In this document: in pieces, positions 1,962 to 38,098 of the stretch
How positions within the stretch are numbered: position 1 is the first letter of the stretch
Layout: each line of letters opens with the position of its first letter
From: a virus
IMG/VR virus record: IMGVR_UViG_3300014204_000373
Length of the DNA stretch: 39,232 nucleotides
Direction: 5' to 3' (one strand)
Made by a program: the position numbers and the translations under genes
Notes under the pieces: model-generated
What the model was told of the DNA's origin: nothing
What the model saw: the letters and a program-made list of their open reading frames with translations, nothing else
Databases searched by the model: none

Positions 1962-2278
1962 TAGAAGGCAACCGAGGTGCTATGCCTGACACTAGCCTTC
2001 TTGTTCACCTCAATGACAACGTAGGGCTTCTTATTTGAACCAGTTGCCATCTCCTGGATACTGACGAACTCATCGAGCACGGCACGCTCGGTCGTTACCC
2101 AATGCTCAATCTCATCTAAGACATCAGTGTGCGCCGGGTAACCATGACCTGGACATGTCCTAGAACGCTCATCTCCTTCAAAATAGATACTCCGACTACC
2201 GTAAATGAGCACAGCGAAGTGAGGGCCACCTGGCACATCATTAGGCCCCTTGACTCGTTTCATTGCTGTTCGATTCAT
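1961..2278 (-). CDS. hypothetical protein
   Basis: ORF track. Translationally coupled to its neighbours by ATGA and TAATG overlaps. Confidence 0.5.
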   Translation of the reverse strand: MNRTAMKRVKGPNDVPGGPHFAVLIYGSRSIYFEGDERSRTCPGHGYPAHTDVLDEIEHWVTTERAVLDEFVSIQEMATGSNKKPYVVIEVNKKASVRHSTSVAF

Positions 2279-2679
2279 CCCTTGGGTCCCTTTACTGCCA
2301 GATCCAACGCTTTGGTTAGTGATTGGGTTGCCCCTAGCCCTAGGTCAACTGCCTCAACCAACGATTTGATTGCTCCCATGACACCGGTATGCCCAAAGAA
2401 CGGAGCCACATGGAGTTCTTTGCAGACCTCGCCGAACTCCTGATCTCGTCTACTCAGTAGGGACATGAGAACGTGTTGAGGTAGTACTGTCGAGATCACC
2501 AGCAATGTGTTCTCATTCAAACGGAATCCGAATATCGTGAGCCACTGCTCAATTAGGTCAGGGTGGTTAACCGGGAACGTTCCTCGAAACATAACCCCCT
2601 CAACCCACACCTGAAGGTCTTGGGCCTCTTGGTCGGTAAGTTCTTCGAAAAGTTTGGTACTCTTGTTGATGGTAGCCAT
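2275..2679 (-). CDS. hypothetical protein, first gene after promoter-like element a
   Basis: The ATG at 2677-2679 sits 5 nt downstream of ...TCGTAATAC-TGAGC. Confidence 0.55.
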   Translation of the reverse strand: MATINKSTKLFEELTDQEAQDLQVWVEGVMFRGTFPVNHPDLIEQWLTIFGFRLNENTLLVISTVLPQHVLMSLLSRRDQEFGEVCKELHVAPFFGHTGVMGAIKSLVEAVDLGLGATQSLTKALDLAVKGPKG

Positions 2680-2680
2680 G

Positions 2681-2714
2681 CTCAGTATTACGAATGGGAT
2701 CAGAATTTCAACCT
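2681..2714 (-). promoter_or_regulatory. promoter-like element a (GGTTGAAAT-N15-TCGTAATAC-TGAGC-ATG)
   Basis: Member of the repeated GTTGAGAT...GCGTAATA family. It ends 5 nt before the ATG of 2275..2679. Confidence 0.45.
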
Positions 2715-7347: not shown

Positions 7348-7386
7348 TTGTTGAGGTTCTATAGCCTTCATGCGTAATACACGGGC
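7348..7386 (+). promoter_or_regulatory. promoter-like element b (GTTGAGGT-N18-GCGTAATAC)
   Basis: Family member on the plus strand after the 6858..7343 stop. Followed by an ATG (29-aa ORF) and a 10-bp-stem hairpin. Confidence 0.4.
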
Positions 7387-7418
7387 ATGACGAGAATAGC
7401 GGCACTCAACCTACTTAA

Positions 7419-7443
7419 GGGTTGGATCGTAAAGATCCAACCC
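7419..7443. repeat. perfect 10-bp-stem hairpin GGGTTGGATC-gtaaa-GATCCAACCC
   Basis: Read directly. Lies ~35 nt downstream of element b. No U-tract. Confidence 0.5.
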
Positions 7444-7623
7444 TACAAGATAGTCTCGTCGAAGCCCGGAACCTGACAGTCACAACCGGACGCAAGCATG
7501 TTGTTCGAGTAAGTTGTGGGCGCTACTTCGTAGTTCCTCTGTTCGCTCCGGGCAAAGAAGGTTACAAGCACGACGCTGGTTTCACTTCTTTTGGCCAGTT
7601 AGTTGAAGAATCTATGGGGCCCG

Positions 7624-8037
7624 ATGTCAGCAGCGAAATGCCAATACTACGCAACTCCTGATGAGGCTGCTCAAGCAGCGACCAAGAAACTTCGTACCAA
7701 GTACGGTAGTGGACCTCAAGTATTCATCTTCAGGAGCCCGGAGGGCTTCGGGTTCTCGACGACGAAGCCTACCAGGGTAATGAAGCGATCTACCGTTCTC
7801 ATCATCCCCGAGCGCCCAAACTACTTCCGAGAGGCCCTCAAGGCCATCATTGGTCGGTACCCTCCCATACTTGTTCCGCCTTATGGCACAAGTGAGATGG
7901 GGGATGAGGTAATCGATCTGCAGGATTGGTGCTCTGACAATGCTCAACCCAGTTGGGCTACCGGACTCTCAATGATCGAAGCCGCTGAGCTGATAGTTAT
8001 CCAGGCGCTTGATAACGACAACATCAAACGGGTCTAA
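7624..8037 (+). CDS. hypothetical protein
   Basis: ATG at 7624 (MSAAKCQYY...). The alternative overlapping ORF 7422..7661 (TTG start) cannot be excluded. Confidence 0.4.
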   Translation: MSAAKCQYYATPDEAAQAATKKLRTKYGSGPQVFIFRSPEGFGFSTTKPTRVMKRSTVLIIPERPNYFREALKAIIGRYPPILVPPYGTSEMGDEVIDLQDWCSDNAQPSWATGLSMIEAAELIVIQALDNDNIKRV

Positions 8038-19341: not shown

Positions 19342-19518
19342 TCAACCTTCAACAAGGCTCAAGGCCTCAGAGATACTGCCGAACTGGATTTGCAAGGTGA
19401 TCTCGTAGGCAAGCTTCATCGAAACCGGCCGAACCACTTCTCGGAGTGCCGGAAGTGAGAATGACCGGGCTTCTTCAACCGTCCACCCAAGGGCTTTTGC
19501 AATTCGTTCGTGTAGCAT
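19342..19518 (-). CDS. small helical protein (59 aa), first gene after promoter-like element d
   Basis: The ATG at 19516-19518 is 5 nt downstream of CGCGCGTAATAA-GGTCC. The ORF track starts it further upstream. Confidence 0.45.
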   Translation of the reverse strand: MLHERIAKALGWTVEEARSFSLPALREVVRPVSMKLAYEITLQIQFGSISEALSLVEG

Positions 19519-19556
19519 GGACCTTATTACGCGCGAGGTGGGTAGAATCTCAATCA
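19519..19556 (-). promoter_or_regulatory. promoter-like element d (ATTGAGATTCTACCCACCTCGCGCGTAATAA-GGTCC-ATG)
   Basis: One of three near-identical copies (d, f, h). It ends 5 nt before the ATG of 19342..19518. Confidence 0.5.
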
Positions 19557-19882: not shown

Positions 19883-20480
19883 GGGTTTCCTCTTTCGGTA
19901 GGGCTTCAACGATCTTTACAACCCCTTGCAGGCGATCCGCATTGAGTCCTTGAGTAACCCCTACTAGTTCGACGATCGCCCGTACGCGCGCTTCGGTAAG
20001 CCCCTGGAGGCGTACACTAAAAAGGCACTCAGTCTGTGACATAGGGGTGATTAGGTCTGCGTACTCAGGCAGATCCTCTCGGAGTCGACCAAGGGATGCC
20101 ATGACTTCTCGACGTTTTTGCTCGTTCTCAGCCCGGCGCTCTTGCATCCGTTTGAACCAGCTGTTCTGCCGTAGGGCTTCCTCGAATAGCTCTTGGCCAA
20201 AGTCTTCCAGATCCTCTTGCATGACCACCCCTCGGTAGAGGATCTCATCATCGGGCTCCATTCGAATTGTGTCGAAGGACACTACGAGAACACCCTTGTC
20301 AACCCCTTCAGTGATTGTCATCGCCCGGTATATCTCAGGATCTTCAGTGACCGTGAGGCTGAACCAGTACCAGTTTTGATTCTTCTCAGACTTTATTCCG
20401 GCTCCTTCGAGCTTTGCTTGGAGAGACAGGATGATGTCTTGGGCTCTGGTTTCGGCTTCTGGGCTGCTGTAATGGGTCAT
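19875..20480 (-). CDS. hypothetical protein
   Basis: GAGGAAG SD ~10 nt before the ATG (MTHYSS...). Confidence 0.5.
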   Translation of the reverse strand: MTHYSSPEAETRAQDIILSLQAKLEGAGIKSEKNQNWYWFSLTVTEDPEIYRAMTITEGVDKGVLVVSFDTIRMEPDDEILYRGVVMQEDLEDFGQELFEEALRQNSWFKRMQERRAENEQKRREVMASLGRLREDLPEYADLITPMSQTECLFSVRLQGLTEARVRAIVELVGVTQGLNADRLQGVVKIVEALPKEETHA

Positions 20481-20784
20481 CAGGGTGTTCTTCCTCAGTT
20501 GGTACAATGGGTGCTGGTGGATAGTCTCTGTCTGTACCTCGAGCTATCTGTCCAAAGGTGGGTCGACAAGCAATCTTCTCGCGCCTACACCAGACTTCCT
20601 TCGTCGGTACATCCGATGGGTTTCCACGAGCCGCGCATTGAGGACAACACGCTACCTGCTGACCAGGCTTGCGATCAGAGAGTGCAGTCCACCACGGAGT
20701 GGCCCCTCGACAAAAACAACACACCTCAGACTCTGTATTCTGAGTCAGGTCATCGTCGGGCTCTTTTTGGATGGTGATCGGCAT
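20386..20784 (-). CDS. Cys-rich (CCFCRG...CCPQCAARG) zinc-finger-like protein, first gene after element e
   Basis: ATG 11 nt downstream of GCGTAATAC. The 3' part overlaps the next gene by ~95 nt. Confidence 0.4.
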   Translation of the reverse strand: MPITIQKEPDDDLTQNTESEVCCFCRGATPWWTALSDRKPGQQVACCPQCAARGNPSDVPTKEVWCRREKIACRPTFGQIARGTDRDYPPAPIVPTEEEHPDDPLQQPRSRNQSPRHHPVSPSKARRSRNKV

Positions 20785-20826
20785 GTACTCGTGGAGTATT
20801 ACGCATGAGTAAGTAACTTCTCAAGG
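20785..20826 (-). promoter_or_regulatory. promoter-like element e (CTTGAGAAG-N17-GCGTAATAC, 11 nt to the ATG)
   Basis: Family member upstream of 20386..20784. Confidence 0.4.
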
Positions 20827-22953: not shown

Positions 22954-23010
22954 TCTTGTCCCCCTAGTGGGTGCGTATTACCAACCTCGAGAGTATCGAG
23001 GTCTTTGGTC

Positions 23011-23045
23011 TATATTACGCGCGAGGGGTTGTAGAACTCAACAGG
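23011..23045 (-). promoter_or_regulatory. promoter-like element f (GTTGAGTTCTACAACCCCTCGCGCGTAATAT)
   Basis: Near-identical to d and h. About 60 nt upstream of 22543..22953, with a 7-bp hairpin and a GGGGGA SD in between. Confidence 0.45.
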
Positions 23046-33562: not shown

Positions 33563-33909
33563 AGACGATAGGTACTCAACTCTGCGGCGGAGATGAGCGG
33601 AATATGTAACTGTCTCGCCAGCTCAATCTCTCTTCTAACTCCGGAAGATGTTCCCCAGCCCGGAACCAATACTAGGACGTCGCAAGTCCTGAGTATGACT
33701 AGAGCAGCCTCGAGCCAGAAGTCATAGTCCTGGAGGTCAGCAAAGGGGTGCCAATAGACAATCGGACACTGGGGTATCCACCCAGCCTTGATAGCATCCT
33801 CGATAACACGCTTCGCCTTTGAGACGTTGATCTCTGTCTCGGAGATACTACCTCCACTGTAAGCGCCCGAGATGAATGCTTTCCCTTTGATCTTCATGCT
33901 ATTTCTCAA
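33559..33909 (-). CDS. DUF4406-like (nucleoside 2-deoxyribosyltransferase-like fold) protein
   Basis: KAFISGAYSG near the N-terminus and CDVLVLVPGWGTSSGVRREIELA, which match the DUF4406 pattern. Confidence 0.6.
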   Translation of the reverse strand: MRNSMKIKGKAFISGAYSGGSISETEINVSKAKRVIEDAIKAGWIPQCPIVYWHPFADLQDYDFWLEAALVILRTCDVLVLVPGWGTSSGVRREIELARQLHIPLISAAELSTYRL

Positions 33910-34418
33910 TTACTAGGGCCTAGCAACGACTCGAGTTGGTTCTGAACCACCACACCATTTTCAGTAATTGGCATCATGATAAGCAACCGTTGCTTCGTGA
34001 AAACATAGGGTATGAAGTTCTCCAAGGTCGTATCCGCCTTTACTAAATCGGCTTTCGGGTCAGTGTTTACACTACGATGTGACTTAGTGATGTACTCAAT
34101 TGCCATGTCAAGATCTTCCGTACTTGCAAACTGAGTAATTGCCCCCTCAAACTGACATCGAACAAGAGCCCCGCTTTCCGACATCTTGTAGCAACCGAAT
34201 ATCTCAGGATTGGTTGGATAGAACCTCCACTGCGAACGATGCCTCGGTACCTCGAAGGCCCACGGGGTACCGCTCTCACAATGCGAGACGAAGCCCGACT
34301 TCTGAAGGGTCAAGCAGATAGTCTCGGGGGTGACTCTACTGTACCAGCTGAACCCTATGTTCGACAAGCCGATCACAAGAGCTACCTTGGTGAGAATACT
34401 TACGAGGTTCGTGGTCAT
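33906..34418 (-). CDS. signal-anchor/secreted hypothetical protein, first gene after element g
   Basis: The ATG at 34416-34418 is 5 nt downstream of GCGTAATAA-TGTGC. N-terminus MTTNLVSILTKVALVIGLSNIGF. Confidence 0.5.
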   Translation of the reverse strand: MTTNLVSILTKVALVIGLSNIGFSWYSRVTPETICLTLQKSGFVSHCESGTPWAFEVPRHRSQWRFYPTNPEIFGCYKMSESGALVRCQFEGAITQFASTEDLDMAIEYITKSHRSVNTDPKADLVKADTTLENFIPYVFTKQRLLIMMPITENGVVVQNQLESLLGPSN

Positions 34419-34455
34419 GCACATTATTACGCACCACCTCGAAGGATCTCAACAA
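34419..34455 (-). promoter_or_regulatory. promoter-like element g (GTTGAGATCC-N16-GCGTAATAA-TGTGC-ATG)
   Basis: It ends 5 nt before the ATG of 33906..34418. Confidence 0.5.
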
Positions 34456-37495: not shown

Positions 37496-37537
37496 ATTGA
37501 GGTTGAGATCTACCGTACCTCGCGCGTAATAGTAGGT
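37496..37537 (+). promoter_or_regulatory. promoter-like element h (GGTTGAGATCTACCGTACCTCGCGCGTAATAG-TAGGT-ATG)
   Basis: Near-identical to d and f. It ends 5 nt before the ATG of 37538..38098. Confidence 0.5.
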
Positions 37538-38098
37538 ATGACAACGATAAGTCTGAGTGCATCATCAGATTACGGTCAATCTGGACAGTACATTGCGATA
37601 TTGACCGGGAGAGCTCCTAAGGTTCATTTTACTCGGTCATTCGTTGGCTCCAAGTATGGGAAGCGCAACGAGGGGACCAGCTACGAAACTGACGAGGCGG
37701 GTCTCTATGAGTGCTGTGATCATACCCGTAAGGGCAAGGTCAAGCGGTACTACATTGTGCTTGAGTTCAATGGTGAGTTGAAGAGACTCCAAACCGACCT
37801 TGAGGACTCACTACTGATTGCCAAGAGGCTTGAGGGGGGTGAGTCCCTGGCTGACGTGGTCGAACTACTAGTTGAGGACGAGAAAGTCGTCTACCGGATC
37901 AACAGTAAGACCGAGGTAAAGAAGGCTAAGGCCGCCGGTGACATCGACGCGGCTGTTGCAGCCATCGTGTCTGCCCTTCAAGCCCTCCCCACCAACCTTC
38001 AGAAGAAAGCTCTCGCGCAAGCCAAAGAGCGTCTCTTCCCACCAACCCCCAAGACCACTACTGCCGAAGGAGAAACCCATGTTCCAGTGGCTACATAA
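37538..38098 (+). CDS. hypothetical protein, first gene after promoter-like element h
   Basis: The ATG is 5 nt downstream of CGCGCGTAATAG-TAGGT. Confidence 0.5.
   Translation: MTTISLSASSDYGQSGQYIAILTGRAPKVHFTRSFVGSKYGKRNEGTSYETDEAGLYECCDHTRKGKVKRYYIVLEFNGELKRLQTDLEDSLLIAKRLEGGESLADVVELLVEDEKVVYRINSKTEVKKAKAAGDIDAAVAAIVSALQALPTNLQKKALAQAKERLFPPTPKTTTAEGETHVPVAT

Follow-up and report, generated by a model that had tools for sequence, protein, structure and literature searches.

Gene content of the window and organization of a repeated element

The window investigated here is a whole viral contig of 39,232 bp from a JGI metagenome (P0001), which is also contained in a 65.6-kb contig of the ENA. 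It harbors phage genes for a terminase-like protein, the N-terminus of a tail fiber, an RNA ligase and an HD-domain protein, and furthermore encodes an ADP-ribosylglycohydrolase, a NAD-kinase-like protein as well as NT5C and GmrSD_N proteins. Eight copies (a to h) of a two-part element with the structure GTTGAGA-N15..18-(Y)GCG-TAATA-N are distributed over the window, and every copy is oriented toward its downstream gene (Table 1). The present analysis deals with this element and with the start codons that follow it at a fixed distance, an arrangement that probably marks promoters of leaderless mRNAs.

The sequence GCGTAATA at the downstream end of the element is found seven times in the window compared to an expectation of 0.29, and none of 100 shuffled sequences reached this number. 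The eight copies of the first-pass annotation are all present, but only seven of them contain GCGTAATA; copy a has the variant TCGTAATA, which lacks the first G. The sequence TTGA[AG] is located 15-18 nucleotides (nt) upstream of TAATA in all eight copies. A gap of exactly 5 nt (N5) between TAATA-N and the ATG, as noted previously, is found in copies a, c, d, g and h, while the distance amounts to 6 nt in copy b, 11 nt in copy e and 58 nt in copy f. The binomial probability of five out of eight copies sharing one exact offset is about 5e-8, if the frequency of ATG is taken as 1/64. The five N5 ATGs open reading frames of 58 to 186 codons, and each of the corresponding genes heads its gene block.

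Table 1. Positions of the element copies, of their downstream genes and of the GGTGTA motif in the window.
Feature	Position	Strand	Description
Copy a	2686..2711	-	TTGAAA, 15-nt spacer, (TCG)TAATA, then C, TGAGC, ATG 2679
Gene a	2275..2679	-	134 aa; predicted leaderless; start validated by homologues
Copy b	7351..7379	+	TTGAGG, 18-nt spacer, TAATA, then C, ACGGGC, ATG 7387; doubtful
Copy c	15857..15884	-	TTGAGA, 17-nt spacer, TAATA, then T, GGTGC, ATG 15850
Gene c	15326..15850	-	HD-domain protein, 174 aa; predicted leaderless
Copy d	19525..19553	-	TTGAGA, 18-nt spacer, TAATA, then A, GGTCC, ATG 19518
Gene d	19342..19518	-	58 aa; predicted leaderless
Copy e	20797..20824	-	TTGAGA, 17-nt spacer, TAATA; ATG 20784, 11 nt past N
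Copy f	23013..23041	-	TTGAGT, 18-nt spacer, TAATA, 58-nt leader, GGGGGA Shine-Dalgarno sequence, ATG 22953
Copy g	34425..34452	-	TTGAGA, 17-nt spacer, TAATA, then A, TGTGC, ATG 34418
Gene g	33906..34418	-	170 aa; predicted leaderless
Copy h	37503..37531	+	TTGAGA 37503-37508, 18-nt spacer ending CTCGCGCG, TAATA 37527-37531
Copy h, downstream part	37532..37538	+	N 37532, N5 TAGGT 37533-37537, ATG 37538
Gene h	37538..38098	+	186 aa; no Pfam family; predicted leaderless; start validated by homologues
(Y)GGTGTA	starts 244, 2722, 6842, 13503, 31604	+	
(Y)GGTGTA	starts 37487, 29111, 26861, 24635, 22494, 18009, 13466, 8623, 1549	-	
Genes after (Y)GGTGTA	1532, 29094, 13519, 31618, 24620		terminase-like (1532), ADP-ribosylglycohydrolase (29094)

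Conservation of the element and its spacing in related phages

Relatives of the window were retrieved via homologues of gene h and gene a as loci of approximately 20 kb each, with most of each genome located beyond them. The same element with its N5-ATG recurs in L001 (outside the window), L004, L005, L006, L067, L079, L080 and L081. A slightly relaxed -10 pattern identified 25 N5-ATG sites in the window and its relatives, 22 of which open at least 50 codons, and they represent about 17 gene families. The alignment of 29 non-redundant copies from the window and the relatives resulted in the consensus wwwnTnG-TTGAGA-(17 or 18)-...CTcRYGCG-TAATA-N-W-n-n-G-Y-A-T-G. The spacer between TTGAGA and TAATA has a length of 17 nt in 19 sites, 18 nt in nine and 15 nt in one. 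The G in front of TTGAG is present in 25 of the 29 sites, A/T is enriched at positions -40/-41, and C-19, T-18, R-16, Y-15 and G-14 are conserved although the search pattern did not constrain them.

The N5-ATG spacing is retained across phages whose proteins are 45-80% identical, and GCGTAATA is unchanged even where the identity is merely 45-60%. The orthologous promoters of gene a hold the spacing despite changes in the -10 block itself (TAATAC-TAGAC-ATG, TAGTAC-TGATC-ATG, TATTAA-CAGAGT-ATG). One consensus is common to at least 34 sites in the clade, and about three quarters of them are N5-ATG sites. The element is absent from the distant relatives of gene h (L065, L068-L074). A metagenome scan with the alignment of the h family added 13 loci, among which L067 alone contains the element, and the motif is therefore confined to a subclade. 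The equivalent scan of viral contigs recovered one distant locus without the element.

Putative start-site signature and distribution of Shine-Dalgarno sequences

The base at the A position of the ATG is an A in 26 of the 29 aligned sites, and the preceding base is a C or T in equally many (26/29). Both features are also maintained in those copies with a leader, where no TG follows the A. A pyrimidine at -1 combined with a purine at +1 is the signature of a bacterial transcription start site. The comparison of the aligned copies hence shows that the conserved feature is a putative start position, on which an ATG usually sits.

All copies with leaders of 15-58 nt have a purine-rich Shine-Dalgarno (SD) sequence 5-10 nt before the ATG (GGAGGAG, GGGTGAG, AAAGGA, GGGGGA, GAGGGGA), whereas the mere 5 nt between the -10 block and the ATG of the N5 copies leave no room for one. 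An SD core, defined as GGAG, GAGG or AGGA at positions -18 to -4, precedes none of the five N5 genes of the window but 23 of its 57 other genes (about 40%), compared to 11.7% of random positions. The earlier statement that the internal genes carry GGAGG-type SD sites thus holds for only about 40% of these other genes. All N5 starts are ATG codons (25/25), whereas GTG or TTG accounts for 18 of the 131 other start codons called in the relatives.

Validity of the start codons

The starts of the 21 aligned members of the h family differ by at most two residues, and the proteins share the N-terminal pattern M-x-T-[IV]-x-L-x-A. In the h orthologues without the element (L006, L065-L078) the same start codon is preceded by an SD sequence (GGAGG, AAGGA, AAAGGAAGAGG). 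For gene a, the sequence MATINKTTKLFE..LTDQEA is conserved from residue 1 onward in seven homologues, with M1, A2, N5 and T8 among the invariant positions. The comparison of the two protein families validates the N5 ATG as the true start of genes h and a. The HD_4 profile match of gene c begins at residue 8, and a downstream start is therefore unlikely for this gene as well.

It is conspicuous that the gene callers conflict exactly at the predicted leaderless genes. Gene a was called with 134 aa in the JGI annotation, while the caller of the ENA contig places its start 29 codons downstream after GAGGGGG (105 aa). Gene d was called in the Logan contig L062 and missed in the ENA contig. The start of gene g is located at position 34418 according to the JGI caller and at 34424, a second in-frame ATG two codons earlier, according to the ENA caller. 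The latter ATG lies inside the -10 block of copy g and could therefore not be part of the predicted transcript. One homologue of gene h (P0004) was called with an N-terminal extension of 13 residues (ISRVIEGM), which corresponds to the translated promoter.

Interpretation as a promoter of leaderless mRNAs

It is likely that the element serves as a promoter from which leaderless mRNAs are transcribed, their first base being the A of the ATG. Spacing, the A(+1)/pyrimidine(-1) signature, the dichotomy of SD usage and the conservation of the N-termini all argue for this reading, which had been put forward in the first-pass annotation. The element would represent a two-part promoter of the bacterial type, composed of an A/T-rich patch, the -35-like GTTGAGA behind it, a spacer of 17-18 nt and the extended -10 region CTcRYGCG-TAATA. 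The enzyme reading it would be a multisubunit RNA polymerase equipped with a factor of the sigma-70 family, either the primary sigma factor of the host or a phage-encoded or alternative one. Transcription is predicted to start six bases after TAATA-N at an A behind a pyrimidine. This A is, in most copies, the first base of the ATG, so that the transcript would begin with the start codon and contain no SD sequence. By analogy with characterized leaderless mRNAs, ribosomes would bind the 5'-terminal AUG directly. Where the promoter is located further away from the gene, a normal SD-containing leader would be transcribed instead.

The -35 half is in good agreement with this reading. TTGAGA and TTGAGT match TTGACA at five of six positions; TTGA was fixed by the search pattern, while the preceding G and the A/T at position 6 are conserved without such a constraint. 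The distribution of spacer lengths reported above corresponds to the spacing of 17 +/- 1 bp of bacterial promoters.

Several observations weigh against the proposed promoter. The -10 block deviates from the TATAAT type, as T1 and A2 are invariant but a T occupies position 6 in merely 5 of the 29 sites. A generic sigma-70 scan revealed no enrichment in the window and found only some of the copies, with copy c being detected directly and a few others only via a shifted hexamer. Transcription in E. coli usually starts at the 7th-8th base downstream of the -10 hexamer, and the start predicted here, at the 6th base past TAATAN, is one nt nearer. The gap of 5 nt is also shorter than the 6-7 bp reported for Deinococcus (PMC12340547). 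No gene for a sigma factor or an RNA polymerase is recognizable in the window or in the loci of about 20 kb retrieved from the relatives. In the window, no credible open reading frame (ORF) begins at the ATG of copy b, and the product of copy e may be a short terminated transcript and not an mRNA. The comparison documents how the element is built, that it is conserved and that two of the start codons are valid. From this we infer promoter activity itself, the precise start of transcription, the kind of polymerase and sigma factor involved and the mode of translation. The TAATA-N type of the -10 block, its closeness to the start, the invariant GCGTAATA and the lack of enrichment in the sigma-70 scan, which found only some copies, suggest a dedicated factor, i.e. 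a phage-encoded or alternative sigma. A generic terminator scan of the window showed no enrichment.

Three known promoter types were considered. Promoters of extracytoplasmic function (ECF) sigma factors have a -35 region with AAC and a -10 region with CGT about 16-17 bp apart. The element contains a CGT inside GCGTAATA, but its -35 TTGAG lacks the AAC and the distance between TTGAGA and CGT is 13-16 nt, and this type was rejected. T7-like promoters, whose roughly 20 conserved bp form a single contiguous block of fixed length that extends through +1, were likewise dismissed; the element consists of two blocks with a spacer that varies in length and sequence, and only Y-1, A+1 and the ATG are conserved downstream. 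The resemblance of TAATAC to a T7 promoter was discounted as well, since its sixth base varies and conservation is lacking downstream. Promoters of the N4 virion polymerase are characterized by a conserved inverted repeat that forms a short hairpin just upstream of +1. The arms flanking GCGTAATA form stems with a mean of 3.93 bp compared to 3.59 bp for mismatched partners, a difference that is marginal (permutation p = 0.025) and obtained from orthologous sites that are not independent. The 4-6 nt before GCG show a tendency toward complementarity with the N5/ATG region (CACCA/TGGTG, TACCT/AGGTA, GCCCT/AGGGC), for example at 15884-15845 and 37503-37545. In folding energy, the eight copies do not surpass shuffled sequences (z between -1.4 and +1.4).

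Alternative explanations

A real promoter could also start transcription at the canonical 7th-8th base, which is the T or G of the ATG, so that the ATG would remain untranscribed and a downstream start codon would be used. This is the position favored by canonical sigma-70 geometry, the purine G of the ATG follows a T, and the ENA call for gene a, 29 codons downstream and behind GAGGGGG, would fit such a scenario. It is nevertheless very unlikely, because both the a and the h family conserve the residues that immediately follow the N5 ATG, orthologues with an SD sequence start at exactly the N5 codon and the HD domain of gene c begins at residue 8. Moreover, an untranscribed ATG would not keep a fixed offset in about 17 gene families, and it is the A and not the G that is conserved in the copies with a leader. 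The first-pass annotation had named as an alternative that the element acts at the RNA level, as a fixed-position translation-initiation element; within longer or polycistronic RNAs, it could also be a processing site that generates the leaderless end. Several copies are located within co-directional gene arrays, where read-through transcripts are likely, and the 5 nt before GCG show the weak pairing with the N5/ATG region described above (p = 0.025). However, this signal is marginal and stems from non-independent orthologous sites, the eight copies fold no better than shuffles and no Rfam family was matched. The two halves are separated in a promoter-like manner by a spacer of variable length and sequence, and the ATG of the leadered copies lies 15-58 nt away with an SD sequence of its own, which indicates that the element itself does not recruit ribosomes. 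We thus regard a role as RNA as quite improbable.

The element might instead be read by a phage-encoded polymerase, either a single-subunit or a non-virion multisubunit enzyme, in which case its likeness to -35 and -10 regions would be coincidental and the leaderless outcome the same; the geometry of the start site could then not be deduced from sigma-70 rules. The clade comprises contigs of 225 kb and 443 kb, and some jumbo phages encode RNA polymerases (PMC5312081, PMC8244752). The conserved block with its invariant GCGTAATA is far more informative than typical host promoters, and the -10 lacks T-7. On the other hand, the spacing of 15, 17 or 18 nt and the A/T patch upstream are typical of sigma and of the C-terminal domain of the alpha subunit, in contrast to contiguous T7-like promoters. 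The mapped promoters of phiKZ and AR9 differ from the element, with leaders of 26-491 nt and no leaderless transcripts (PMC8244752, PMC5312081). Furthermore, no polymerase gene is recognizable in the sequence covered, which leaves out most of each genome. On balance a phage polymerase appears unlikely. The repeat could finally be mainly an operator for a DNA-binding regulator of the phage, or another signal at the DNA level, whose closeness to start codons is secondary. Its sequence identity is very high for a promoter, and a partial dyad symmetry surrounds the -10 block, with CATGC..GCATG in some copies. Yet the strict orientation with the downstream gene, the -35/-10 layout with 17/18-nt spacing, the Y-1/A+1 signature and the mutually exclusive use of either an SD sequence or an N5-ATG are at odds with an operator, which would moreover not fix the offset of the ATG to one base. 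This explanation is highly improbable.

Comparison with known leaderless systems

Bacterial leaderless genes are conventionally recognized by a -10-like sequence situated about 12 bp ahead of the start codon, and genes with such a "TA-like signal" are found in Actinobacteria, Deinococcus-Thermus and Chloroflexi (PMC3160421). In Deinococcus, where the "-10-motif" genes of D. radiodurans have been described, the leaderless -10 motif is located 6-7 bp before the ORF and has been validated experimentally (PMC12340547). The element of the window shares with these bacterial genes the -10-like sequence at a fixed short distance, the lack of an SD sequence, the ATG start and, where present, a -35 region at about 17 bp, and in both cases the leadered genes of the same genome use SD sequences. 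The core of the bacterial leaderless genes is TANNNT, whereas the phage core TAATA-N has no conserved final T and is embedded in the invariant GCGTAATA. The gap to the ATG is 5 nt in the phage element and 6-7 nt in the bacterial genes. The phage consensus is clade-specific and far more conserved than host promoters.

Among phages, a leaderless case is lambda PRM-cI. Predicted leaderless SigA-like promoters have further been reported for Cluster O mycobacteriophages (PL1, PR2, PL2), with several such promoters per genome, some of them arranged as divergent pairs (PMC4351075). The Cluster O promoters match the SigA consensus of the host and few per genome are leaderless, whereas we found one non-canonical consensus of high information content at 34 or more sites. 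The phages phiKZ (PMC8244752) and AR9 (PMC5312081) resemble the clade investigated here in their large genomes and in a repeated phage-specific promoter consensus upstream of gene blocks. However, none of the mapped phiKZ transcripts is leaderless (PMC8244752) and the leaders of AR9 are 26-491 nt long (PMC5312081). In both phages, the promoters are recognized by phage RNA polymerases and are devoid of a -35/-10 layout, in contrast to the element of the window. When the literature was searched for the motif string, the only matches were primer sequences with no relation to it.

The mechanism is already well known, and the current understanding of leaderless translation is unchanged by our finding. 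The novelty lies in the consensus, in how strictly it is kept and in its presence among large uncultivated phages of one clade. For this clade the element provides an annotation rule, namely that the ATG five bases past GCGTAATA-N is the start codon, at positions where gene callers now conflict. It also delimits transcription units in phages whose genomes reach 443 kb and which have no cultured representative, and offers a natural comparison of leaderless and SD-led expression among orthologous genes. If a phage-specific factor reads these promoters, the consensus would be a handle for finding this factor and for ordering the program of gene expression.

Copies b, e and f

Copy b had been listed as a further case of the fixed distance. 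Its ATG at 6 nt is indeed present, but with a reading frame of merely 29 codons in the window it is doubtful as a start. The orthologous promoter in the 443-kb contig L079 (6732-7007 (-)) has an N5-ATG that opens an intact ORF of 91 aa. In the corresponding region of the window (7387-7661 (+)) the 79 codons further downstream share 84% identity with the protein of L079, yet their frame is displaced by one base. The first ~10 codons after copy b are out of frame with the remaining 79 by -1 in the window and by +1 in the JGI variant L002 (3868-4193 (-)). The frame break coincides with a perfect hairpin, whose stem has 10 bp in the window; in L002 (GGGTTGGATC-GTAAA-GATCCAACCC) an insertion of 2 nt has lengthened it to 20 perfect bp. 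The 240 nt downstream of copy b have a folding z of -3.5, with the 5' GACGAGA pairing with a downstream TCTCGTC, and an Rfam scan of this region yielded only a chance match to a small nucleolar RNA. The intact N5-ATG ORF of L079 and the frame shift in the window are therefore indicative of an ancestral leaderless gene behind copy b, whose 5' end was apparently remodeled in the lineage of the window, so that copy b is not a clean case. The region could be a remodeled 5' end in which an internal TTG serves as start; it could also be a regulatory leader or a site of frameshifting.

Copy e has a predicted leader of about 6 nt without an SD sequence, and its sequence is identical in L062. A terminator-like hairpin with a T-rich tail is located at 20744-20725, about 40 nt into the ORF that follows. 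This ORF (20386..20784 (-)) comprises 132 codons with two Cys pairs, overlaps with its 3' end the next gene by about 95 nt and was called by neither of the gene callers. The leader of copy f (22954-23012 (-)) contains a 7-bp hairpin, ACCTCGA-TACTC-TCGAGGT, at about 23002-22984, which has a terminator-like score on the opposite strand.

A second motif with the core GGTGTA

The hexamer GGTGTA occurs 30 times in the window compared to 16.6 expected occurrences, and (Y)GGTGTA is also present in L001, L004-L006 and L079-L081. In the window and its relatives, 43 of 97 GGTGTA copies are followed after 7-15 nt, with a mode of 9-10, by an ATG that opens at least 50 codons. For the first five sources, half of 62 copies have such an ATG at a distance of 8-15 nt, compared to a background of 2.9%. 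None of ten cases in the window has an SD sequence between GGTGTA and the ATG, while GGAGG is present in the two copies that are located 21-23 nt from the ATG. Four phages have the motif at the same, orthologous place ahead of the terminase-like gene, and no -35 consensus was found upstream of GGTGTA.

GGTGTA appears to share the core GYGTA with the main element and to be located at the same distance from the ATG (GTA + 9-10 nt). As judged from its position and sequence, it may represent a second, -10-only class of promoters with very short leaders or none, and SD-independent initiation would then be a phage-wide habit for first genes. A more far-reaching proposal, which we consider distinctly unlikely, is that leaderless or near-leaderless initiation is the default for first genes in this clade, with two promoter classes that share GYGTA and a phage-directed sigma-like factor that reads both. 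Class 1 would correspond to GTTGAGA-N17/18-GCGTAATA-N6-ATG and class 2 to YGGTGTA-N9-11-ATG without a -35 region. If so, the phage would have a pool of mRNAs that is independent of the SD/anti-SD pathway, and this might favor phage over host translation in conjunction with phage translation factors such as the product of the IF1-like gene in L006.

Relatives of the window and mobile elements

A protein with a shoulder domain of the major vault protein (MVP) type (870-880 aa, also given as 876-927 aa) is kept across the clade (window 8750-11380 (-), L079 1086-3701, L081 1457-4093). It has distant relatives with approximately 25% identity in unannotated GenBank records of 462-735 kb designated "uncultured phage", and it is the sole protein of the window for which relatives were detectable in these records. 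Metagenomic contigs with lengths of 225 kb and 443 kb encode nearer relatives, which places the window in a clade of uncultivated phages with large genomes. A scan of viral contigs with the 927-aa protein revealed no relatives, 12 kb of the window had no megablast match among the GenBank phages, and scans of the window for tRNAs and Rfam families were negative.

Locus L006 (2666-3935 and 6120-6356) encodes a DDE_Tnp_1 transposase of 411 aa, which is preceded by the element and an N5-ATG, as well as an IF1-like protein of 78 aa (PF01176). The relatives of the transposase are mostly located in metagenome-assembled genomes of Chloroflexota with identities of 44-57%, which is suggestive at best, a weak hint to the host that does not amount to an assignment. 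A single match with 89% identity is found in L028 (1441-2674), a 74-kb contig that was binned as "delta proteobacterium" and contains the same element; it is probably a misbinned phage contig. In L080 (9976-12023), a TnpB-like gene (Cas12f1-like_TNB, 475 aa) is located beside a MerR/resolvase gene, an arrangement that resembles an IS607-type insertion in the phage.

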